From an uncultured Chthonomonadaceae bacterium (lineage in GTDB: Bacteria; Armatimonadota; Chthonomonadetes; Chthonomonadales; Chthonomonadaceae): a stretch of 64,000 nt of DNA. This document shows, piece after piece, positions 1,948-55,628 of this stretch (position 1 is its first letter; each line of letters opens with the position of its first letter). The stretch spans positions 32,001 to 96,000 of the forward strand of contig CAWIEK010000048.1 in NCBI GenBank assembly GCA_963835065.1. The letters run 5' to 3'. The translations under genes and the position numbers were made by a program. The notes below the pieces were generated by a model, which searched no databases, was not told the origin of the DNA, and saw only the letters and a list, made by a program, of their open reading frames with translations.

Positions 1948-3405
1948 TCACGCGCTTTTAGTCAGCGGAAGCCGCGACTGAGTTTGCGTCAGGTAGGTGT
2001 CTACATTGTGAGCGGCTTCGCGGCCTTCGGCAATGGCCCACACAATCAGGGATTGACCGCGCCGCATGTCGCCGCAGGCATACACGCCCGGTATGCTGGA
2101 AGCGTACTCCCGATTTGTTTTCACATTGCCGCGTCCATCGAATTCCACGCCCACATCGGCAAGCAGCCCTTCCTGCTGCGGATGCACGAAGCCCAGGGCA
2201 AGTAATACCATGTCGGCATCAATGGCAAACTCGGAGCCGGATACGGGTTCCATTTTACGCCGCCCGGTTGTATCGGGCTGTCCCCATTCGACCCGCACAC
2301 CATGAAGCTGCGCGACTTTGCCGTTTTCGCCGCTGAAATGCGTGGTGTGGATGCTCCAATCGCGCTGCCCGCCTTCTTCATGCGCGGCGGATGTACGCAA
2401 AATCATCGGGTAATGCGGCCAGGGCATGGTTTCATCGCGCTCATTGGGCGGCTTGGGCATGATTTCAAACTGGTACACTTCCGAAGCCCCCTGCCGAATT
2501 ACGGTTCCCAGGCAGTCCGCGCCCGTATCGCCGCCGCCCAGGATAACCACTTTTTTGCCTTCGGCTGTCAGCTGCGGCTTGTCCGGCAGCCAGTCGCCCG
2601 CCACTTTTTTATTTTGCTGCGGCAAAAAGTCCATCGCAAAGTGGATACCGTCAAGTTCGCGGCCTGCGACGGCCAGGTCGCGGGGCTTGGTGGAACCGCC
2701 CGCAAGGACAATGGCATCGAACTGCGCCTGCAATTGCGCCGCTGTGATGTCTACGCCCACATTGGTATTGGCCCGAAATTGGACACCTTCCGCTTCCATC
2801 TGCTTCAAGCGACGGTCCAGCACCCATTTTTCCATTTTGAAGTCGGGAATGCCGTAGCGCAACAGCCCGCCGATCTTGTCATCGCGCTCAAAAACGGTGA
2901 CGGTATGCCCGGCGCGGTTCAATTGCTGCGCGGCGGCCAGTCCCGCCGGCCCGGAGCCAACGACGGCAACGGTTTTGCCGGTGCGCTGCGCGGGCGCTTC
3001 GGGTTCGATCCAGCCTTCCGCCCACCCGCGCATTGCCAATGATTCTTCAATACGCCGAATGGTTACCGGTTCCTGATTGATGCCCAACACGCAGGCGGAC
3101 TCGCACGGCGCGGGGCACAGCTTCCCGGTAAATTCGGGAAAATTGTTGGTGGCGTGGAGTTCGTCCAGGGCTTCGCGCCATTTACCCCGGTAAGTTAAAT
3201 CGTTCCAATCGGGAATGATGTTGCCGAGCGGGCAGCCCTGATGACAGAAAGGAATTCCGCAGTCCATGCAGCGCGCGGCCTGTTTACGAAGTTTTTCGTC
3301 GGGAAACTCCTGATACAGTTCGATCCAATCGTGGGTTCGCTCCGCAACCGCCCGGCGGGTCGGCAACTCGCGCCCATATTTCAAAAAGCCTTTCGGGTCT
3401 GCCAT
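1948..3405 (-). CDS. gltD: Glutamate synthase small subunit
   Basis: RCMDCGIPFCHQGCP Fe-S motif, GSGPAG and GGGDTG dinucleotide motifs, GDMRRGQSLIVWAIAEGR. Confidence 0.97.
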   Translation of the reverse strand: MADPKGFLKYGRELPTRRAVAERTHDWIELYQEFPDEKLRKQAARCMDCGIPFCHQGCPLGNIIPDWNDLTYRGKWREALDELHATNNFPEFTGKLCPAPCESACVLGINQEPVTIRRIEESLAMRGWAEGWIEPEAPAQRTGKTVAVVGSGPAGLAAAQQLNRAGHTVTVFERDDKIGGLLRYGIPDFKMEKWVLDRRLKQMEAEGVQFRANTNVGVDITAAQLQAQFDAIVLAGGSTKPRDLAVAGRELDGIHFAMDFLPQQNKKVAGDWLPDKPQLTAEGKKVVILGGGDTGADCLGTVIRQGASEVYQFEIMPKPPNERDETMPWPHYPMILRTSAAHEEGGQRDWSIHTTHFSGENGKVAQLHGVRVEWGQPDTTGRRKMEPVSGSEFAIDADMVLLALGFVHPQQEGLLADVGVEFDGRGNVKTNREYASSIPGVYACGDMRRGQSLIVWAIAEGREAAHNVDTYLTQTQSRLPLTKSA

Positions 3406-6669: not shown

Positions 6670-9600
6670 TTACTTGACGCCCGCAGGCATCTGGTCGGCT
6701 ACGTCTTCCTTGCCGCCGGCTTTGGCGGCCGCGAGTTCCTGCTGTATCTGGCGGTATTCCAGCGATACCACTTTGACGAACTGCGCCTGCGTTTCGGGCC
6801 AGTTCTGGAGGAGGGACGCGCCCCGGTCACTGCGGGTGTACAGGACGTGCCGCTCGATCAGGGTTTTCAATTCGGCTACATCGGCTTCATCCGTGACGGC
6901 TTCCAGCGCGGTCTTGCCGCCGTTGCGGTTGCAGCGGGCGGGGAAGCGGCCTTTGGGGTCCCACACATACGCCACGCCGCCGCTCATGCCCGCCGCGAAG
7001 TTGCGCCCGACTTCGCCCAAAACCACCACCGTGCCGCCCGTCATGTACTCGCAGCCGTGATCGCCCGTGCCTTCCACAACGGCAGTCGCGCCGCTGTTGC
7101 GCACCGCGAACCGCTCGCCCACCACGCCGCGCAAAAACACTTCGCCACTGGTCGCGCCATAAAGCAGCGTGTTGCCCGCGATGATGTTCTCGGCGGGGTC
7201 AAAGGGCGATTGGCGCGGCGGATAGACAATGATGCGCCCGCCCGAAATGCCCTTGCCCAAGATAGTCGTTGGCGTCGCCTTCCAGCGTCATGGTAATGCC
7301 GCGCGCCAGAAACGCGCCGAACGACTGCCCCGCGCTGCCCGTGAATTTCAGGCGAATGGTGTCTTCCGGCAAGCCCTGTTCGCCGTATTTCAGCGCGATA
7401 CGCCCCGACAGCATGGTTCCCACCGTGCGGTTGCGGTTGTAAATCGGCAGTTCGGCGGCAACGGGAATGCCCCGATCCACCGCGCCCTGCGACAAGGCGA
7501 TGAGATGGTAGTCCAGAGCGTCGTCAAGGCCATGCTCCTGCTGCCTGACATGCGACTGCGCGTGTTTGTCCGCGCCTTCCGGCTGCGTGAGAATGGGCGT
7601 CAAATCCAGTCCCCGCGCTTTCCAGTGTTCGATGGCGCAGGTTGCGTCCAGCATGTCAATGCGCCCTACCATTTCGGCAACCGTCCTGAAGCCCAGTTCG
7701 GCCATGATTTCGCGCAGTTCTTCGGCCACGAAGAAGAAGTAATTGATGACGTGTTCCGGCTGGCCCGTAAAGCGCTGCCGCAGAGTTGGGTCCTGCGTGG
7801 CAATGCCGACGGGACACGTTCCCAGATGACACACGCGCATCATAATGCAGCCCATTGCGACAAGCGGCGCGCTGGAAAAGCCGAACTCTTCCGCGCCGAG
7901 CAGGGCGGCAATAGCCACATCGCGCCCCGTTTTCAACTGCCCGTCCGTCTGCACGACGAACGCGCCCGCGCAGGTCGTTTTTGACGAGAGTTTGCTGCGT
8001 TTCCGCCAGTCCCATTTCCCACGGGATGCCCGCGTGCTTGATGCTCGAAACGGGAGACGCGCCCGTTCCGCCGTCATAGCCGCTAATCAAAATGTGGTCG
8101 GCATGGGCTTTGGACACGCCCGCCGCGACCGTGCCGACGCCCACTTCCGCCACCAGTTTGACCGAAATACGCGCGGCGGGATTGACGTTTTTCAGGTCGA
8201 AAATCAACTGCGCGAGGTCTTCGATGGAATAAATGTCGTGGTGCGGCGGCGGCGAAATCAGCGTGACGCCCGGCGTCGTGTGCCGAACGCCCGCGATATA
8301 AGCGTCCACTTTGGTTCCGGGCAGTTCGCCGCCCTCGCCGGGTTTGGCTCCCTGCGCCATCTTAATCTGCAGTTCGTCCGCGTTGACCAGATAATGCGCC
8401 GTGACGCCGAACCGCGCGGACGCGATCTGCTTGATCGCGCTGCGCCGGCTGTCGCCATTGGCTTCGGGCGTGTAGCGGACGGGGTCTTCGCCGCCCTCGC
8501 CCGTGTTGCTTTTGCCGCCCATGCGGTTCATGGCAATCGCCAGCGTCTCATGCGCTTCCCGGCTGATGCTTCCGAGCGACATCGCCCCCGTCACAAACCG
8601 CTTCACAATCTCCCGCGCCGGCTCCACGTCGTCAATTGGAATTGGGCTGCCGACTTTGAATTGCAGCAGACTCCGCAGGGTCGCCAGCGCCTCGCTCGTA
8701 TCATTGACGTGCCTGCTGAACTCCTTAAAGTCGGCAAAGCCCTTTTGAAATGATGAGTGATGAGTGATGAGTGATGAATTGGATTCTGATTCATCATTCA
8801 TCATTCCGCGTTCATCATTTCCCCCCTGCCTTACCGCCTGCTGCAACTGCGCCACCGTATCCGGGTTGTAGGCGTGGTGTTCGCCGAAACGCCGCCACTG
8901 GTACTGCCCGCCCGGATCGAGGTCAATGCTGCCTTTGATGTCCATTTTGGGGTACGCGGACTCGTGGCGGGACAGGCTTTCCTGCTGAATGATGTCCAGG
9001 CCGACGCCGCCCAGACGCGACGGCGTACCGGTGAAATAACGCGCCACCATGTCTTTGTCCAGGCCGATCGCCTCGAAAATCTGCGCGCCCCGGTAGCTTT
9101 GCAGCGTGGAAATGCCCATTTTGGCGAACGTTTTCAGCAGTCCCTTGTTGACGGCTTTGATGAAGTTGATACTGGCTTTGTCCACATTGACTTCGGGCGG
9201 AAACATTTTGTCGCGCCCCATGCTGTCCAGCGTTTCCAGCGCCAGATAGGGGTTGATGGCGGACGCGCCGTAGCCGATGAGAAGGGCAAAGTGCATGACT
9301 TCCCGCGCTTCGCCCGATTCGACGATAAGACCCACGCATGTGCGCGTCCCTTCCCGCACCAGATGGTGATGCACGGCGCTTGTCGCCAGCAGGCTGGGAA
9401 TCGGAGCCGTGTGCGCGTCAATGTCCCGGTCGGACAGAATCAGGAAGCTGTAGCCATCCGCAACGGCGCGGGACGCGGACTTCGCACAGGTTTTGAACGG
9501 CTTTTTCCAGCGCGTCCGGCCCGTCCTCCACGTCGAACCACATCGGCAGGGTTTTGGCGTTGAACTCGCCCGTGCGGACATTGCGCAGTTTTTCCAGCTC

Positions 9601-11336
9601 GAAATTGCGCAGAATGGGCGACTCCAGCTTGAGCATGTGGGCGTGTTGCGGCGTGGCGTCCAGCAGGTTGCCGTCGCTGCCGATGAAGTCCACGAGCGAC
9701 ATGACCAGTTCTTCGCGGATGGGGTCAATGGGCGGGTTCGTCACCTGCGCGAACAACTGCTTGAAGTAGTTGTACAGCAATTGCGGGCGCCTGGACAAAA
9801 CGGCAATCGGCGTGTCCGTGCCCATGCTGCCCAGTGGCTGCTCGCCATTCGTCGCCATCGGGTACAAAATCAGGCGAATGTCTTCCAGCGTATAGCCGAA
9901 CACCTTCTGGCGCGTGAGCAGGGTTTTCTCGTTAGGCAGATGGATGAATGGCGGTTCGGGCAGGTTGTCCAGCGTGATGCGGTTGGCGTCCAGCCACTCT
10001 TTATAAGGATGCTGCGTACAGAGTTCGCGCTTGATCTCGTCGTCGCTGACGATGCCGCCGCTGACTCAGGTCAATCAGGAACATGCGCCCCGGCTGCAAG
10101 CGGCCTTTTTGCACGACGTGGGCCGGGTCGATATCCACAACGCCCGTTTCCGACGCCAGAACCACAAGATCATCGTCCGTGACGCAGTAGCGGGCGGGGC
10201 GCAGGCCGTTGCGGTCCAGCAACGCGCCGATCATGCGCCCGTCCGTGAAGCAAACCGCGGCGGGGCCGTCCCAGGGTTCCATCAGGCAGGCGTGGTACTC
10301 GTAAAACGCGCGGCGCTCGTCGTCCATGCCCGGATCGCCGGTCCACGCTTCCGGCATCAGCATCATCATGGCGTGCGGCAGGCTGCGCCCGCCCAACGTC
10401 AGCAGTTCGACGGCGTTATCCAGAGCGGCGCTGTCGCTGCCGGACTTGTTGATGAGCGGCAGCAGTTTCTTGATGTCGTCGCCGAACAGTTCGGAGGACA
10501 GGGATTTTTCCCGCGCGCTCATCCAGTTGCGGTTGCCGCGCAGGGTATTGATTTCGCCGTTGTGGGCGATGTAGCGGAAGGGATGCGCCAGATCCCAGGT
10601 CGGGAAAGGTGTTGGTGGAAAACCGCTGATGCACCAGCGCGAGGGCGGTGGTCGTGCGCAGGTCGCTCAGGTCGAGATAATAGGCCGCCATCTGATGCGT
10701 CATCAGCAGGCCCTTGTAAACAATGGTGCGGCACGACAGGCTGTTGACGTAAAAATAGCCTTCCTGCTCCAGGCACAATTCCACAATGGCGTTCTGAACG
10801 CGGCGGCGGATGAGGTACAGTTTGCGCTCGAAAGCGTCTTCATCGGCAATGTCCGCGCTGCGCCCGATAAAAATCTGCCGGATGACCGGTTCGACCGTTC
10901 GGGCCAGAGCGCCGATTTTGGCGTGATTGATCGGCACGTCGCGCCAGGCGAGAACGGTCTGCCCTTCTTCCCGTACAATCTGCTCGAAAATCTGCTCATA
11001 CGTGGCGCGTTCGTCGTCTTTGGTGGGCAAAAACAACATGCCCACGCCGTACTCGCCGGGGGCAGGCAAAGCGATGCCCTGTCCCTGCAATTCATCGGCA
11101 AAAAACTCATGCGGAATTTGAAACAGGATGCCCGCGCCGTCGCCCGTATCCGGGTCGCTGCCGGTCGCGCCCCGATGTTCCAGTTTGCGCAGCACGTCCA
11201 AGCCCTGCTTGATGATGGCGTGGGATTTATGGCCTTTGATATGCGCGACGAAGCCGACGCCGCAGGCGTCGTGTTCAAACTGCGGGTCGTACAATCCATG
11301 CGCGGGGGGCAGTTGGCCGGGTTTGGCTTGTTCCAT
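6670..11336 (-). CDS. gltB: Glutamate synthase large subunit (broken by several frameshifts)
   Basis: Consecutive ORF pieces carry [53 protein letters not shown] and [10 protein letters not shown]. Confidence 0.95.
8748..8820. repeat. Heptamer-repeat palindromic element in-frame within gltB
   Basis: (TGATGAG)n arm and (TTCATCA)-like arm; encodes [23 protein letters not shown]. Confidence 0.85.
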
Positions 11337-11628: not shown

Positions 11629-12076
11629 TAAACGGGAAAGAAAAAGGATATGTAGAGTCATCGTCGAAATCTTGGCAATGCAGCGCTTCCAGCCCGATGT
11701 CTCGTTGTGTCAAATTGTAGGAGAGAGGCGTCGTGGCCTCAGCAGCGTCAGGGCGAACGGGAGGAAAATACAGGCATCTTCCAGCACCTCCCTTCCGGGT
11801 TAGTTGATAGTTGATAGTTGATAGTTGATAGGAACTATGATCTTCAACGTCCCGCCACCTGGCTAGTTAGCAGCCTCTATTATATAGACTTATGTATACT
11901 TAGACGAGTTAGATGCGAGGAAGGTTCGTTTGTTTCTGCTATTTATGCAGAAATGTTTCTACTTTTTTGCACATTCTTTTTAGATTGATCAACCCGGAGG
12001 AGGGAGCAGGCGCAGCACAGGGGCGAATGACCTACGATGGGATACGTGTTGAGCATTTGAGATGCGCCGACCCTGC
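11629..12076. repeat. ~440-bp dispersed element, copy 1 (candidate sRNA/leader/small-ORF or non-autonomous mobile element)
   Basis: Collinear with 57487-57924; identical blocks such as GTCGAAATCTTGGCAATGCAGCGCTTCCAGC and AACGTCCCGCCACCTGGCTAGTTAGCAG. Confidence 0.9.
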
Positions 12077-17068: not shown

Positions 17069-18274
17069 TTAGCGTTGAAGGCGGCGCTTGCGGCGCGCGA
17101 ACCCAACGCCCAACACCCAACATCCAAGCCCCATCGCCGCCATGCTGCCGGGTTCGGGTACGGCCAGCACGAAATAGCTGCCTTGCCCGGAAGCGTTCGT
17201 GCCGTAGCCCAGTATCCGCCCGTCGCTGCTGATACCGAAAACGGCTGAAACCGTCAGGCCCGCGCTTGCCGGCAACAGGTCGTTGATATTGTACAGCGTG
17301 TGGTTCTGGTAGAGAAACGGGAGGGACGCGCCGCTTGCATCTTCAGCCGCGCCGATGACCTGCCCCATATCATTGATGTAAAAGGCGTAGCTGTTGGCCC
17401 CGCCGAACGTGCCGATGTCGTCACCGGGAGTCAGCAGGCCGGTTCCCGAATGGACAAAGGCGTGCATGTCGAAGTTGCCAGGCTGGTACGTGGACGCGCC
17501 GATGATCAGACCCTCGTTGTTGATGCCTGTCGCATAACTGCTGATGGTGTCGTTAAGCGTGCCGAGTGAGCTAAATTGGCCGTTGTGGTACAGAAAAGCC
17601 AGGCTTTCCGTCGCCAGGTTCGCCACTTGCGTATCGCCATATCCCACAACGTCGCCCGCGTCGTTAATGCCGTAAGCCGTTGTCGTGTTGGCGGCATTGG
17701 CAACGCCGTTCAAGTCGGGAATGGTTCCCAAATCCGTCAGAACGCCGTTGTCATAAACAAACGCATGGCTGGTGGTGTAGAAATTGCCCGTGCCGTCGTC
17801 GTACAGCGTATCGCTTGTCCCGGCGATCTGCCCGCGATTGTTGATAGCGTAGGCGTTATTGTTGTAGGTAAGCCCTTGCGAATTCGTCGGGTCTGCCTGT
17901 TCGCCAAGCGTGGGAATCAAGGTAAGGCTGTTACCGACGCTGACAAACGCGCGGGTGTCGAAGTTCGGGTCCAGGCCGTAGCCCGTCAGGACGCCACTGT
18001 TGTTGATGGCATACGGCGTGTTCATCGGAAAGATCGGGTTCAATGTACCGAGCGTAACAAAGTTCTGTCCGTTCGGGCCGCTGCGCACCACATTGCCCTG
18101 CGTGTCCACGCCGTAAATTTGCAGCGCGTCGTTGAAGCCGTACACACTGATATTGGGATCAACGTTAATAAGGGAAAAGCCAAGCTGCTGGGCGCGAACA
18201 GTGGAAGCAGTCAGGCACAGCAGGGCGCTGCCCGCCATAAGCAGAGCGGCGAAGCGCGAGGAAGCAAAAAGCAT
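17069..18274 (-). CDS. PEP-CTERM protein with HAF-family extracellular repeats
   Basis: Signal peptide; repeated A-x-x-IN-x-x-G...HAF..LGT; VPEP + hydrophobic + RRKRR tail. Confidence 0.9.
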   Translation of the reverse strand: MLFASSRFAALLMAGSALLCLTASTVRAQQLGFSLINVDPNISVYGFNDALQIYGVDTQGNVVRSGPNGQNFVTLGTLNPIFPMNTPYAINNSGVLTGYGLDPNFDTRAFVSVGNSLTLIPTLGEQADPTNSQGLTYNNNAYAINNRGQIAGTSDTLYDDGTGNFYTTSHAFVYDNGVLTDLGTIPDLNGVANAANTTTAYGINDAGDVVGYGDTQVANLATESLAFLYHNGQFSSLGTLNDTISSYATGINNEGLIIGASTYQPGNFDMHAFVHSGTGLLTPGDDIGTFGGANSYAFYINDMGQVIGAAEDASGASLPFLYQNHTLYNINDLLPASAGLTVSAVFGISSDGRILGYGTNASGQGSYFVLAVPEPGSMAAMGLGCWVLGVGFARRKRRLQR

Positions 18275-18383
18275 TTTGTAGAACTCCTGAAAACGAATAA
18301 AGAAAATTTCCTTGTGTCGCGTCGCAAACATGATAGCACATAACGGAGCGGACGCCTGCTCCTCTATGCCAGAAGTTGACTTT

Positions 18384-19294
18384 TCAGGGATTTTTAACAG
18401 ATTTGGCGGCAACGCGCAGCCAGACAAAGCGGGTATCGCCGTCCGGCAGGTTTTGAATCTGGAACACTTCTTTTGCTTTTGCAGGCGCGGAGGCAAACGC
18501 CTGCCGCACGGCTGCCGCTTGTTCGGGTACGCATCCGGCTTTGACGATCCAGTCGTTGAGCGTGATGGCAACGTCGCCAACAGGACCTTCCAATTCGGCA
18601 ACTATAAGCCCGGCGGCTTCCAATGCCTGCCGCCATTCGCGCGGGGAAAGGTTGCGGACGTGGGAAGGGTCGCGCAGGGCTTCCACACGGTTTTGCCACT
18701 TGGCCGCTTCCATCATGGCGTTTGCAGAGTAATGGGTCGGGTGGCAAGGACGTTTGTAAATTCGAAGTTTCCGCCGTTTTCGCTGTTGGCTTCGGCATTG
18801 CCGTTCGTACCCGCCTCCGTGTCGTTGTCCGGGACACAGGTATCCGCCAGCACAAAGCGCCCGCCCGGTTGCAGTACGCGCCGGACTTCGGATAAAAACT
18901 GCGGAATGGAAAGAAAATGGTGTGGCGCGACCCGGCACGTGACGAGTGAAAACGCCGTGTCCGCGAAGGGCAAGGCTTCCGCCGCGCCTTCCTGCCAACT
19001 GACATTGCCGATACCCTGCGCTTGCTGATACGCCTGCGCCTGCCGCAACATTCCTTCAGAAACGTCCAGTCCGACAACGGAAGCCACATGCGGCGCAAAG
19101 GCCAGCGCGGTAAACCCGGTTCCCGTCGCCACATCCAAAACCGTATCGTCCGGGCGACAGGCGGCGTGATCGAGCATCCAGCGCAGCGTATTTTCCGTCC
19201 AGGTATTCCACTGCGCGTTGTAGTGCGCGGCCTGCCGGTCAAACTGATCCTTTGCGGAGCGCGCGGGCATTTCTGTTGTGTTTGTTTCCATCAT
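18384..19294 (-). CDS. Class I SAM-dependent methyltransferase (frameshift and low-complexity insert near 18715-18815)
   Basis: VLDVATGTG, LPFAD, RVLQPGG in one frame; EALRDPSHVR C-terminal half in another. Confidence 0.8.
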
Positions 19295-21343: not shown

Positions 21344-21471
21344 TATTAGGTTTCAGGTTTCAGGTGTCAGGTGTCAGGTAAGGACGGCCTGATTGTTTTA
21401 ATTACTGCCGGGCACAAGATGTTAAAATCAGGCTCCTCCTGACACCTGACACCTGAAACCTGAAACCTGAA
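21344..21471. repeat. Heptamer-repeat palindromic element (TCAGGTG/TCAGGTT arm vs CCTGACA/CCTGAAA arm)
   Basis: Complementary tandem arms at 21344-21378 and 21438-21471. Confidence 0.85.
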
Positions 21472-23691: not shown

Positions 23692-23810
23692 CGCCTCCTC
23701 TTTCACCATACAGCCCTTAATTTCCTGCGAAATGCAGATAGCTACAACCTCACCCAAAAAGAGGAGGGATGAAAAATTCATCCCTCCTCGTTCATCCCTC
23801 ATTCCTGCTC

Positions 23811-28753: not shown

Positions 28754-28922
28754 TCACACAGAGACACTGAGACCAGAGCTTTCACAAGGAGAGAATAGAG
28801 AAGATCAAGAAGTTTTACAGGATACGTTCTGACTCCAACGCAGTGCGTTAAGCCGGAAGTTCCGCTCTGAACCCTCTCTTCTTTTCTCTGTGAATCCTCT
28901 GTGTCTCTGTGCCTCTGTAGTG
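28754..28922. repeat. CACAGAG-type inverted-repeat element between rpoB and rpoC
   Basis: CACAGAGACACTGAG left arm; CTCTGTGTCTCTGTGCCTCTGT right arm; same family as 49379-49671. Confidence 0.75.
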
Positions 28923-28932
28923 CGATGAATTC

Positions 28933-33149
<4,217 letters not shown>

Positions 33150-35632: not shown

Positions 35633-35753
35633 GGTGAAATTCAAGGATGAAGGATGAATATTCTTTCTGATTTCCGTCATTGGTGTTGGGTGACAATGTG
35701 AGTTGAAATAGGAAGGCTGAAGTGAAACTTGTTGGGAGAAGAGACACATTCGT

Positions 35754-36530: not shown

Positions 36531-39524
36531 ATGACCACTTCCTTCCGCTTTTGCCGGGGCGTTTTTTCGACTGGCTGCCTGTCCCTGCTTGCCATCGGAA
36601 CCGCTTTCATGGGAGGCGCGGCGGCAATCAAGGCCCAAAAAGCCGTGCCCTATCTCCATGCTCCTTCTGTCACCACGTATGCCAAACACGATCCCAACGG
36701 CCTGACCATTTTGCCCACCGGACGGTATTTGAAACCCGTCGGAAAACATTTGCCGCTTGCCCGCTGGCCGCATGGCCTGACGCTTTCTCCTGATGGCGAA
36801 ACCGTCTTTGTCGCTAGCGCGGGCGTGGGGCAGTTGATTACGGAATGGCAAAGCGACAAGCCAATTGTGACGCCCATTAGGATGGAAGCGTCAGAAAACA
36901 GCGTACCCGGCAGCCGCAGGCGGCGCACCAACACGGGCGCGGCGGTGTTTTCACCGGACGGCAGAACGCTTTATTGGAGCAGCGGCGAAAGCGGCGAGAT
37001 TTACATTGTGGACGTGTCTGCGCATCAAGTGATCGGCAGTATCGCGCTCAACAGCGAACTGAACGGACGCGCCTGGACCGACAGTTTTGCGATGGACATC
37101 AAACTCAATCAAGCGGGAACGTTTTTGTACTGCGCGGACGTGACCAATTTTCGCGTAGCCGTCGTGGATGTGGCGCAACGCAAAGTTGTCGGCGCTGCCG
37201 GCGTGGGGCGCTACCCTTACGCGCTGGCCGTGCAGGGTTCGCGCGTTTACGTCGCCAACATCGGCATGTTCGCGTACAGCCCGGTTCCGCTCCCCACTTC
37301 CGGCGCGTTCGACAAGCGCGGCCTGACCTTTCCGCCCTTCGGCTTTCCGAGCAAAGAAGCGGCGGAAGGCGTGGAGTTCGAGGGACGTTCGATTCCCGGT
37401 TTGGGCGACCCGAACGCGCCCGAATCGTTTTCCGTGTGGGGCGTAGATGTTTCCACGCCCGCGCAGCCGCGCATTATCAGCCGCGCCAAAACCGGCCTGC
37501 TGATCGGCGCTCCTTCCGACAACGGCAAAACGGTCGGCGGCAGCGCGCCCAACTTCCTTGTCATGGGAGCAAACCCTGAAGCAAACCCTGCATTAAAAGT
37601 AATGCATGGACAACAGGGACAAAACGCGCTCCAACAAGCCGGGATAAGCCAGAACACATCAAAGCAAGCCGCGCCACAACAAAACACGCCAAACCAAAAC
37701 GCGCTGTGGATTTCCAACGGCAACAACGACCTTATTGAGCGGCTTGACCTGCAAACCGGGAAAATCACCCGGCGCATCCCCTTGCGGCCTTCCAAGCTGA
37801 CCGCGAAACTGCGCGGCGTCGGGCCGTCCGGCATGGCCGTTTCGCCGGACGGAAGCCGCCTGTATGTGGCCGAGTCGGGCCTGAACGCGATTGGCGTGAT
37901 TGACGCTCACACCGGCAAGGTCATCGGGCATATTCCCACCGCCTGGTATCCCTATCGCGTCGAAGTTTCCCCGGACGGCAAAAAACTGCTGTGCATCTGT
38001 TTTCGCGGCTTCGGCAACGGACCCAATGCCGGCAAATCCAAACCCGACAGCCCCTATCTTGGCTTGAAAGGCGTTCTCACGGTACTGGATGCGCCGACTG
38101 ACGCGGAACTCGCGCCCATGACCCAAAACACGCTCGCTTACAACGGGATCGCAGACCGCAGCGATGACCGCGCCGACCTGTCAACTCCCCTCATTCCCGC
38201 CGTTCCCGGCAAACCCTCCGCGCAAATCAAGTACGTCGTCTTCATCACCAAAGAAAACCACACTTACGACACCATTTTCGACCACATTCCCGGCGCGAAC
38301 GACGATCCCACGCTTTTACGCTGGGGATTGCATCAGACCATCGCCGCGCCCGGACAAGCCACTCTGCAAGACGCGCCCGTAATGACGAACCACAACGCCC
38401 TTGCGCGGCAGTTTACGGTCAGCGACAACTTTTACATGGAACCGGAAGCGTCGGGCGTGGGGCATCGCTGGCTTGTCGGCGTACAGCCGGACAACTTCTG
38501 CCAGATGCTCTATACATTGGGCTGGAGTTTCAAGGCTGACAGTTCGGCTCCGGGCAGGCGCGCGGCCTTCGGCTCCAATGGCTCCCTCGCCCCCGAAGAT
38601 TACCCGGAAGCCGGTTCGATGTGGGAGCATCTCGCGCATTACCACGTTCCGTTCCGCAATTACGGCGAAGGGTTTGAATTTGCGGGCGTGGAAGAAGGCG
38701 ACAACGAACGCCGCACCGGGGCGCGCGAAGTCATCAACATGCCCATGTCAAAGGTTCTTTACGACAACACCTGCCGCGATTACCCCATTTTTAACATGAA
38801 CATCCCCGACCAGTACCGCGCCCACTGGTTCATGCAGGATTTTACGAGGTTGTTTCTGGAGGGAACAGGGGACAGGGGACAGGGAACAGGGAACAGCAGG
38901 AACCCAATCGGCAATCGGCAATCGTCAATCGTCAATCCTAACACCCCGCATTTCATCAATATCGCCCTTTGCAATGATCACGGCACGGGTCCGAACGCGG
39001 CGAAAGGCTATCCGTATGTGGCATCGTGGATGGCGGACAATGATCTGGCGTTAGGGCGGATTGTGGAATTCTTGTCGCATACGCCGTACTGGAAGCAGAT
39101 GGCGATTTTCGTTACGCAGGACGACGCGGGGGGCGAACCGGATCACATAGACGCGCAGCGCAGCGTCCTGCTGTGCATCAGTCCGTGGGCAAAGCGGGGT
39201 TATGTTTCGCACCGGCATACCACCATCGTCAGTATGCACCGCACCCTGTACGAAATTTTGGGACTGCCGCCCCTGAACATGTTTGACGCGCTTGCCAACG
39301 ACTTTTCGGATTGTTTCACAACGACGCCCGATTTTCGCCCCTATACCTGCCTGGGCGTAGACCCGCGCATTTTCGACCCGGAAAAAGCCAAAGACCCCAG
39401 TGACCCGGAGTACAAAAAGGCAGGCCAAACTGCGTCTATCCTGCGCGACGACCCCGATGACGAGGAAGAGAGAGAAGAAGCCTTGCGCAAAACGCAAAAG
39501 CCGGCCAAGCCTGCGCATCCCTGA
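36531..39524 (+). CDS. Secreted YncE-like beta-propeller / phosphoesterase (alkaline phosphatase superfamily) fusion
   Basis: Signal peptide, SPDG blades, KENHTYD, NDH, ADNDLALGRIVE, DDAGGEPDHID. Confidence 0.88.
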   Translation: MTTSFRFCRGVFSTGCLSLLAIGTAFMGGAAAIKAQKAVPYLHAPSVTTYAKHDPNGLTILPTGRYLKPVGKHLPLARWPHGLTLSPDGETVFVASAGVGQLITEWQSDKPIVTPIRMEASENSVPGSRRRRTNTGAAVFSPDGRTLYWSSGESGEIYIVDVSAHQVIGSIALNSELNGRAWTDSFAMDIKLNQAGTFLYCADVTNFRVAVVDVAQRKVVGAAGVGRYPYALAVQGSRVYVANIGMFAYSPVPLPTSGAFDKRGLTFPPFGFPSKEAAEGVEFEGRSIPGLGDPNAPESFSVWGVDVSTPAQPRIISRAKTGLLIGAPSDNGKTVGGSAPNFLVMGANPEANPALKVMHGQQGQNALQQAGISQNTSKQAAPQQNTPNQNALWISNGNNDLIERLDLQTGKITRRIPLRPSKLTAKLRGVGPSGMAVSPDGSRLYVAESGLNAIGVIDAHTGKVIGHIPTAWYPYRVEVSPDGKKLLCICFRGFGNGPNAGKSKPDSPYLGLKGVLTVLDAPTDAELAPMTQNTLAYNGIADRSDDRADLSTPLIPAVPGKPSAQIKYVVFITKENHTYDTIFDHIPGANDDPTLLRWGLHQTIAAPGQATLQDAPVMTNHNALARQFTVSDNFYMEPEASGVGHRWLVGVQPDNFCQMLYTLGWSFKADSSAPGRRAAFGSNGSLAPEDYPEAGSMWEHLAHYHVPFRNYGEGFEFAGVEEGDNERRTGAREVINMPMSKVLYDNTCRDYPIFNMNIPDQYRAHWFMQDFTRLFLEGTGDRGQGTGNSRNPIGNRQSSIVNPNTPHFINIALCNDHGTGPNAAKGYPYVASWMADNDLALGRIVEFLSHTPYWKQMAIFVTQDDAGGEPDHIDAQRSVLLCISPWAKRGYVSHRHTTIVSMHRTLYEILGLPPLNMFDALANDFSDCFTTTPDFRPYTCLGVDPRIFDPEKAKDPSDPEYKKAGQTASILRDDPDDEEEREEALRKTQKPAKPAHP

Positions 39525-40823: not shown

Positions 40824-40910
40824 GGAGGGTGTCGGGTGTCGGGCGTTGGGTATTAGGAGAGCCGATTTTCCTAACACCCGATACCCAATACCCGACACCC
40901 GACACCCTCC
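40824..40910. repeat. Heptamer-repeat palindromic element (GGGTGTC arm vs GACACCC arm)
   Basis: Complementary tandem arms at 40824-40858 and 40869-40910. Confidence 0.85.
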
Positions 40911-49378: not shown

Positions 49379-49671
49379 CTTTCACCACAGAGGCACAGAG
49401 ACACAGAGGAGTCACAGAGGGAAAGAAACGGAGAAAGGAGAGTGGAGAACCGCGAAACACACGAAATAAACGAAAAAAGAACAAAGTGAAGGAAAAAGAA
49501 TGGAAAACATCCTGCAAAGTGGCTGTTCCTCTTTGCTAACTTTGCCTCTTTGCGGTTCTTTTTGTTTTCCTTTTTTCGTTTTGGTTCGTGTCTTTCGCGG
49601 TTCCCGCTCACTCCTCTTTCTTCCGTTCTTCTCTGTGACCCCTCTGTGTCTCTGTGCCTCTGTGGTGAAAG
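49379..49671. repeat. Nested long inverted-repeat element between convergent genes
   Basis: 31-bp perfect outer IR (49379-49409 / 49641-49671); inner AACCGCGAAA...TTTCGCGGTT pair; orphan CTCTTTGCGGTT arm. Confidence 0.9.
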
Positions 49672-50712: not shown

Positions 50713-51107
50713 AAAATTCATCCTTCGTCGTTGAGATTGAGCGCTGTCGAGACTGGTGATTGGGAAATGGAAACCCGTTTGGCGCAAACGCGGTAAACCG
50801 GCCGCGTTTGCAGGCTGTACAGGCAATTCTCCACACGCCGGCGCAGTTCCTCCCTAATTTCTGCCTTAAAGCGCATTGTCAGATTTAAAGCGTTCATGCT
50901 GGCCCCGTCTGCCGAAGATTGAAAATCCTTAGGTTCTGTAAATCAATAACTTCCCGAACCAGCGGGAATCTCGACCTTTGCAAGCGGGAAATGAGGAAAG
51001 CAAAGGATGAGGGATGAAGTGACCTACTCCCCAAAGAGTAGGAGGAAGAAACAGCATAGGACGCGAATCCTGATTGCACATAACATTTATCGCGCTGGAG
51101 TAACACC

Positions 51108-55567: not shown

Positions 55568-55628
55568 AGGATGAACGATGAGTGATGAGTGATGAGTAGA
55601 ATCCATTCATCCTTCATCCTTCATCCTT
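55568..55628. repeat. Heptamer-repeat palindromic element (GATGAGT / TTCATCC arms), intergenic
   Basis: Same family as the gltB and rpoB inserts. Confidence 0.8.

Follow-up and report, generated by a model that had tools for sequence, protein, structure and literature searches.

The locus studied here raises a plain question: what kind of element is a short palindrome of 7-nt tandem units that is read in frame inside a glutamate synthase gene, and how did it get there? The window, by which we mean the whole stretch of DNA that was analysed, comprises 64,000 nucleotides of one contig from an uncultured Chthonomonadaceae bacterium. The assembly of this source genome totals 8.0 Mb in 71 contigs, and genome-wide counts refer to all of these. 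The named GltB proteins that best match the one encoded here are from Chthonomonadales (67-72% identity). Features of the window are collected in Table 1.

A first-pass annotation, made from the letters of the window, had described a palindrome of 7-nt tandem units translated as part of GltB, and the arrays, the fold and the translation all confirmed it. Within 8748-8820 the unit TGATGAG is repeated 3.9 times at 8751-8777 and the unit ATTCATC 4.4 times at 8789-8819. None of 200 shuffled sequences folded as well as the native one, either as RNA (z = -5.07 for 8735-8835) or as DNA (z = -3.99), and an Rfam scan of the window gave no match at the gathering score. The extra residues had been put at about 25; the insert is indeed present, but its net length relative to the canonical turn is 27 residues. 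The last of these (FQKG) resemble the older non-repetitive loop of relatives such as P0002.

The gltB gene is broken in the assembly: the intact 1,549-aa protein of a relative (P0001) aligns to it in six pieces, with 89.8-95.4% identity and five changes of frame. These five frameshifts, which lie outside the insert, are probably long-read sequencing errors, because contigs from an independent short-read run (X1) show gaps at the frameshift regions, including single bases omitted at 7959 and 10601. That the insert might be an assembly chimera, on the other hand, found no support. The X1 contigs, which are ~95-96% identical to the window, continue gap-free from gltB into both arms (at 8184-8776 and at 8794-9405) and so cross both junctions. 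No difference is listed inside the arms, and no single contig bridges 8777-8793.

Table 1. Features of the window discussed in the text, with positions counted from its first letter.
Feature	Position	Strand	Basis or remark
gltD-like small subunit, intact frame	1948..3405	-	Fer4_20 and Pyr_redox_2; the name gltD is a reading of this domain pair
gltB, large subunit of glutamate synthase, with five apparent frameshifts	6670..11336	-	alignment to intact relative
QKG codons, probably left over from an older loop extension without repeats	8739..8747	-	motif in plain loops of relatives
Coding-adapted GATGA heptamer hairpin, 73 bp, in frame in GltB	8748..8820	-	109 genome copies, 24 at ≥90%
Right arm, pyrimidine-rich, TCATCAC units, stop-free on the coding strand	8748..8778	-	array and arm-unit data
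Hairpin loop, 9 nt	8780..8788	-	other stop-free copies vary at the centre by +3 or +6 nt
Left arm, purine-rich, four 7-nt units	8790..8820	-	array and fold data
Stop-avoiding unit CGCGGAA replacing TGATGAA	8804..8810	-	sole phase in which the standard unit gives two stops
GGGTGTT arm in frame, forming the hydrophobic segment of a PEP-CTERM tail	17101..17127	-	array and ORF data
Intergenic hairpin of another unit family, AGGTTTC/AGGTGTC	21348..21471	.	array data
Short GGATGA-family hairpin	23765..23808	.	downstream of rpoC
Hairpin with 8-nt CACAGAGA arms	28756..28918	.	same arm type as around a GxxExxY gene at another genomic locus
Single GGATGAA arm	35643..35659	.	beside probable start of O-methyltransferase gene
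Second in-frame insert, mismatched arms (GGGAACA left, CAATCGG right)	38860..38937	+	997-aa beta-propeller/phosphoesterase gene
Intergenic hairpin, GGGTGTC family	40827..40907	.	array data
Long hairpin with 8-nt CACAGAGG arms	49386..49664	.	array data
Single GGATGA arm, intergenic	51003..51017	.	array data
GATGA-family non-coding hairpin, stops unpurged	55568..55628	.	between acyl-CoA dehydrogenase stop and next gene

As shown in Table 1, the insert is not the only array in the window. Four further sites had been assigned to the same family, and they do carry related GATGA units between genes or at gene starts, although two of them are single arms. The in-frame insert at 38860..38937 had been missed in that inventory.

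To place the insert among glutamate synthases we compared its site with that of other GltBs. In solved structures the site is a short turn (between residues 816 and 821 of 7mfm_G), in contrast to the source genome with its net insert of 27 residues. A predicted model of low confidence (AlphaFold; mean pLDDT 63.6, pTM 0.48) shows the insert as coil with pLDDT under 50 between two helices. The short turn was found in 133 of the 140 distant GltB loci that were parsed, and an array in none of the 160 distant loci (20 of them unparsed). Thirty loci from relatives divided into 21 with the short turn and nine with a longer loop. Repeats of other unit families occupy the loop in the related genomes G001, G002 and G023, and loops without clear periodicity stand there in G011, G022, G024, G050 and G052. 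In the protein collection, 92 of the 122 aligned GltBs were canonical at the site, this set having been picked with an insert-containing query. To judge from peptides rather than DNA, P0002 and P0006 have a plain loop and P0001, P0122 and P0005 another repeat.

The repeat at this loop differs even between close relatives. One 90%-identity cluster of GltBs (the source genome, G002, P0001 and P0122) holds at least three different repeat peptides at the loop, and P0005, the sister of G001, has yet another. On a tree built without the loop, by a quick method and with the misframed part of the G002 row masked, the repeat label has to change twice or more, and the sister of G023 has a plain loop. 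These data suggest separate colonisations of the GltB loop.

The empty site that an alignment of GltBs was expected to reveal is therefore only partly clean: distant GltBs mostly have the short turn, but the immediate lineage has plain loops or other repeats. One of the two findings that the annotation had named as speaking against its inference is the same loop without heptamer periodicity in close relatives. Such loops were in part found (P0002, P0006, G022 and G024), which argues that the repeat overwrote an existing tolerant loop. The plain loops of P0002, P0003, P0009, P0012 and P0022 end in a similar F/W-x-K/R-G-F/Y motif. Because that of P0002 ends like the source-genome loop, the GltB loop is likely older than the repeat and was likely re-used as a tolerant site.

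A search of the genome for the motif upheld the earlier view of a dispersed repeat copied into protein loops. The GATGA hairpin has 109 copies of at least 62 nt, 70 of them at ≥85% and 24 at ≥90% identity; the module is mostly 73 nt long, with fixed ends and length, and the 73-bp element has matches in four of 61 related genomes. A run of three standard GATGA units necessarily gives a stop in every frame. Sixty-eight copies are nevertheless stop-free in the gltB frame, and the unit CGCGGAA is present in 38 of these compared to one of the 41 stop-containing copies. Lengths of 73, 76 or 79 nt were observed for 64 of the 68 stop-free copies and 27 of the 41 others, and these steps of three point to selection on translation. 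Around 46 of the stop-free copies the frame is open over ~490 nt (random baseline 364 of 3,000), in every case in the frame and strand used in gltB and in none in another, while the other 22 stand outside any long open frame. Orthologues of the host genes, scanned for 38 of the 46, include topA, ligA, polA, dnaE and genes for acetate-CoA ligase and a RecQ-family helicase.

Since CGCGGAA is a non-repeating unit that stands at a fixed place in many copies, the module appears to spread by copying between loci and not by local slippage. The proposal that the repeat is 'self-expanding' by slippage thus sits poorly with its fixed length and shared stop-avoiding unit. The GltB element is likely translated rather than spliced, because copies within open reading frames share the gltB frame and the length steps of three, and the reading frames speak against removal of the copies from mRNA. 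The insert would then likely be a flexible, translated loop of GltB, as selection on frame, strand and length suggests; we infer that it is near-neutral for the enzyme.

Older arms surround many of the copies. Nesting within such arms was observed for 37 of the 68 stop-free copies and only five of the 41 stop-containing ones, and the remaining 31 stop-free copies stand without detectable older arms. We tested for insertion into existing hairpins by measuring the complementarity of the flanks. There was a weak signal in 30 stand-alone stop-free copies (-10.7 versus -9.2 kcal/mol, with 0 of 100 shuffles as good) and no signal in two other classes of copies. The weak signal, which came from one of several tests, may reflect older arms that have decayed.

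The GATGA hairpin had been taken for a single repeat family; it is instead one module of a system of at least 15 unrelated unit families with one common layout. We counted ~3,200 polar 7-9-nt arrays in the genome (2,662 heptamer, 454 octamer and 123 nonamer), whereas simulated Markov sequence gave four heptamer arrays in 1 Mb against the 2,662 in 8.0 Mb. Arms are ~4.5 units long (mode 4.5 copies). The left arm precedes the right arm in 886 of 896 multi-arm elements, and in close complementary pairs the G-rich arm comes first 534 times and the C-rich arm six times, with 24 ties. In multi-arm elements the two innermost arms seldom match (23 of 127). Simply inserting whole hairpins one inside another is therefore not the principal way in which these elements arise.

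Coding and non-coding elements differ in how well their arms match: 227 of 251 non-coding two-arm elements have matched arms, compared to 18 of 57 coding ones. With intact G001 genes as the reference, the frame is kept and open in 51 of 59 in-gene elements and in 185 of 194 controls; with G002 genes it is so in 20 of 26 elements and 94 of 101 controls. The portions compared were 2.0 Mb (G001) and 0.8 Mb (G002), and a codon filter had first removed 11 of 70 element rows and 7 of 201 control rows from the G001 set, and 7 of 33 element rows and 7 of 108 control rows from the G002 set. We tentatively read the eight out-of-frame or stop-bearing elements among the 59 as errors. Of 1,969 elements judged by a codon model, 218 came out as in-frame and open and 1,391 as unclear; a common unit is missing from 37 of those 218. 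Units containing a stop account for 29 of 430 arms where the site is in frame, versus 356 of 644 at other same-strand sites. As the arms at coding sites are mostly unmatched and stop units are rare there, coding sites are mosaics of stop-free arms. Matched arms, as in the gltB element, are the less common case among coding elements.

Turnover at a fixed site was seen both between relatives and within the assembly. In G002, the nearest congener, arrays occupy 13 of the 21 orthologous in-gene sites and none of 101 controls, and ten of the 13 share no unit with the source genome. G001 has arrays at 16 of 50 such sites and at none of 194 controls, with no shared unit in 14 of the 16. Within the assembly we counted turnover on long duplicated blocks of at least 97% identity, where the element is the same in 56 of 62 cases, partly changed in two and replaced or absent in four. 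Among these blocks is a swap between the GATGA family and an 8-nt family inside one gene; whole swaps occur between families that share little sequence, and partial, graded arm changes between blocks that are 98.6% identical. Three copies of dnaE (91-93% identical) carry three families at one codon. Instead of alleles, the duplicated blocks may represent paralogues, strains or a relative binned together with the source genome. Repeat-bearing protein loops have likely been rewritten repeatedly by a copying system, to go by these sequence comparisons. The assembly also contains a separate dispersed mini-gene repeat.

Two families of small genes lie within the arms. All three PF05635/TIGR02436 (four-helix-bundle) genes and all three PF13366 (GxxExxY) genes of the genome are enclosed by inverted 7-9-nt arms. 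Such arms enclose three of the 1,004 ordinary ORFs (100-200 aa) used as controls, which were chosen with a codon filter that did not pass the cassette genes themselves. GATGA arms flank none of these six cassette genes in the source genome. Among 61 related genomes, 27 have PF05635 matches above the cut-off, two each in G002 and G023. No such match was found in G001, although that genome has repeat inserts, and the link of the cassette genes to activity is therefore loose. The copying system is nonetheless probably linked to these small repeat-flanked cassettes. The genome does not show the Avd protein next to a reverse transcriptase and template repeat that marks a diversity-generating retroelement: its two reverse transcriptase genes sit on other contigs than the cassettes, and the Avd model scored 27-32 bits against a cut-off of 80.

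Arrays also lie inside the rRNA genes. The 16S gene is 1,696 nt long versus 1,533 positions in the model, and the 23S gene ~3,223 nt versus 2,925. A GATGA hairpin is present near the 3' end of 16S in one copy, and a relic of it in another that is 99.1% identical.

The balance of these data leans towards a reading in which gene-less, stop-free modules of a cassette-linked system are copied into tolerant sites and, in GltB, translated. The GltB insert would be a gene-less, stop-free variant of the genome-wide system of polar, heptamer-armed hairpins. It would have come from another locus and been copied over the tolerant loop that was there before, probably in a copy-in process resembling gene conversion and favouring existing hairpins. 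Copying would depend on the four-helix-bundle proteins, the GxxExxY proteins or both, encoded between like arms, and selection would act as a filter under which only stop-free arms persist in genes and mismatched mosaics result. It could further be speculated, though we think it unlikely, that the Avd-like four-helix-bundle proteins and the GxxExxY proteins, with their nuclease fold, form an undescribed homing system that copies its short arms into existing hairpins, leaving no target duplication, and whose stop-free sub-lineage continually rewrites loops of essential proteins, even between strains.

Another possibility is that host repair alone rewrites fragile hairpins by ectopic gene conversion and template switching, and that the cassette genes are passengers. 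We regard this as a real, if minority, possibility. The ~3,200 arms of ~30 nt are available as substrates, and the 70 copies tested have no target-site duplication (mean direct-repeat score 1.36 versus 1.35 shuffled). Host repair explains the mismatched single-arm mosaics common in genes and the low match of inner pairs as well as cassette-linked copying or better, and it agrees with the graded arm changes between nearly identical blocks and with the inserts of G001, which lacks a PF05635 match. However, repair does not account well for the enclosure of all six cassette genes against three of 1,004 controls, or for whole swaps between families with little shared sequence. The fixed length and ends of the module, the strict polarity of the arms (534 versus 6) and the 31 stop-free copies without detectable older arms also weigh against it.

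A classical MITE or REP-type element, moved in trans by an insertion sequence or a REP-associated tyrosine transposase, would explain a fixed-length palindrome in many copies, and the genome does contain four Y1 transposase matches. None of these four is flanked by the repeat, however, as would be expected of a REP/RAYT pair, nor did this search, made for the Y1 family only, yield termini shared between the repeat and an autonomous transposase element. Arrays enclose none of the four Y1 genes and neither of the two reverse transcriptases, and at least 15 unrelated unit families share a single layout. We consider this origin quite improbable, and the absence of a target-site duplication argues against a classical MITE as the identity of the 73-bp element.

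If the arrays instead served the host, as RNase III or protein-binding sites in mRNA, in chromosome organisation or as a charged surface tag, any unit might do. Sites would then persist while their units change, as they do, and the arms of non-coding elements stay matched. In genes, on the other hand, pairing is mostly lost, nearly all distant GltBs keep the short turn, and the density of arrays varies five-fold within the genus (~40 per 100 kb in the source genome, ~20 in G002 and ~8 in G001, in the parts sampled). A host function is therefore very improbable. RNA-level splicing or skipping like that of an intron, a microsatellite grown by local slippage, or an assembly artefact is barely credible: the GATGA family does occur in rRNA like an intervening sequence and the assembly is error-prone, but selection on frame, strand and steps of three, the non-repeating unit shared by 38 copies and the junctions in independent contigs all speak against these explanations.

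The over-representation of heptamer repeats in bacteria calls for an explanation, and this genus offers a system in which one can be tested: thousands of arms, a countable stop-purged module, swaps between blocks that are 97-99% identical and two candidate protein families. It shows repeat DNA evolving towards readability by the ribosome, and the sites that accept it map tolerant loops of core enzymes. There are practical consequences too, as recurring repeat peptides produce false homology in protein searches and the rRNA copies can distort 16S lengths. If the homing system were real, it would act as a self-renewing supply of peptide modules and provide the cause that bacterial heptamer repeats have so far lacked.

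Several known systems resemble the one described here. Cyanobacteria have the heptamer STRR repeats, and nifJ of Anabaena carries an in-frame heptamer insert. The intervening sequences of rRNA, which RNase III excises from the RNA, are hairpins at the tip of an rRNA helix and may carry a PF05635/TIGR02436 four-helix-bundle gene. Like these, the source genome has hairpins in rRNA helices and inverted arms that enclose the same protein family. Unlike them, its rRNA hairpins are gene-less, its gene-bearing cassettes lie between ordinary genes, and its mRNA copies appear to be translated and not cut out.

As in STRR, Xanthomonas and Geobacter repeats, we found arrays of about four 7-8-nt copies far above chance, in inverted pairs of fixed polarity. 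Paired tandem arrays of hepta- and octanucleotides are described in passages on Geobacter metallireducens (Aklujkar et al., 2009; PMC2700814), where one heptamer family lies within genes as well as between them. Convergent GGGAATC pairs are described in passages on Xanthomonas and Nostoc in a report that, at its date, noted the absence of detailed literature on bacterial heptamer repeats (Rehm et al., 2015; PMC4692102). To the extent of these passages, the arrays share with those of the source genome ~4-5 units of 7-8 nt per arm, inverted pairs and several unit classes; there they are interpreted as regulator sites or quadruplex-forming repeats. A closer parallel to turnover is the P6b stem-loop in the intron of Nostoc tRNA-Leu(UAA), described in part of PMC3488679, where Class 1 and Class 2 heptanucleotide repeats occur. 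There, as here, one fixed site holds a hairpin of alternative heptamer classes in close relatives. In contrast to that non-coding site, turnover in the source genome affects protein loops under a reading-frame filter, and at many loci.

The closest precedent for the coding copies is the Rickettsia palindromic element, which passages of PMC10969869 describe as a palindrome in frame in unrelated conserved genes, in many copies and with a recurring peptide. The GATGA module is likewise a multi-copy palindrome in frame in unrelated conserved genes, with 46 copies in long open frames. It differs in size, as its 73-bp tandem heptamers, or single arms of ~30 bp, compare with ~105-150 bp for the Rickettsia element in the parts of PMC3184786 and PMC10969869 that give its length, and the passages in the latter, which put it at ~150 bp, do not describe it as arrays of tandem units. 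Compared with these descriptions, rather than with the Rickettsia sequences, the source-genome elements also occur as mosaics and replace one another at a fixed position.

Our literature search found no report of a stop-purged coding variant, of turnover inside proteins or of a link to gene cassettes; older papers may cover parts of this. The passages of PMC2700814 and PMC4692102 describe none of these three features. As far as sequence comparison can tell, then, what is known is a class of unexplained paired-heptamer repeats, and what appears to be new is their quantified adaptation to coding sequence and their turnover at fixed sites.

Many ordinary genes of this assembly are bordered by tandem repeat arms, the right one lying at the gene start and the left one past the stop (40 pairs), and the start or stop codon of these genes is often contributed by the arms. 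Some of them are presumably ribosomal-protein genes and smpB. Upstream of gltB, a CTATCAA array lies together with a ribosome-binding site and a mini-ORF, and it is a member of a large dispersed family.

Arms were also found within protein-coding genes. In both this assembly and the related genome G001, in-frame arms occur in a gene that scores 215 bits against the model for Rmt-family 16S methyltransferases, below the cut-off of 250. One PEP-CTERM sorting tail in the window owes its hydrophobic segment to a heptamer arm. This was the only match with heptamer periodicity in the genome-wide list for that motif, and it is possible that the segment represents an exaptation.

The ribosomal RNA genes carry heptamer insertions of differing unit families: two in the 16S, three in the 23S and one in the spacer. 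The 16S copy on contig C37 is without the 3' insertion. Three copies of dnaE, two of them in tandem, share 91-93% identity, and a single codon is the site of a different hairpin in each copy. These copies may be co-binned relatives or the product of misassembly. Like gltB, the rpoB gene is broken into short frames in the assembly, which is consistent with sequencing errors.

Two genes encoding Y1 tyrosine transposases are apparently flanked by non-heptamer inverted sequences of their own, as judged from translation alone.

In two pairs of non-coding elements, both arms switch family together while the flanks stay the same, as does part of the centre. The centres of these family-switched elements look promoter-like, a putative assignment.

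Locations of the repeat-associated features and related genes (C, contigs of this assembly; L105, a contig of G001)
Feature	Location	Strand	Context
Arm in PEP-CTERM tail	window 17101-17127	-	ORF 17069-18601
CTATCAA array, mini-ORF	window 11780-11850		upstream of gltB
rpoB, short frames	window 29436-30797		and neighbours
Rmt-model gene	L105:13043-13999; C42:5182		in-frame arms
dnaE	C23:27584-35492; C8:71911-75521		tandem pair on C23
rRNA insertions	C51:114802-121114; C49:338082-341304
Y1 genes	C42:76532; C51:103107
Family-switched pairs	C36:1996 / C61:8555; C50:9491 / C70:33903		non-coding
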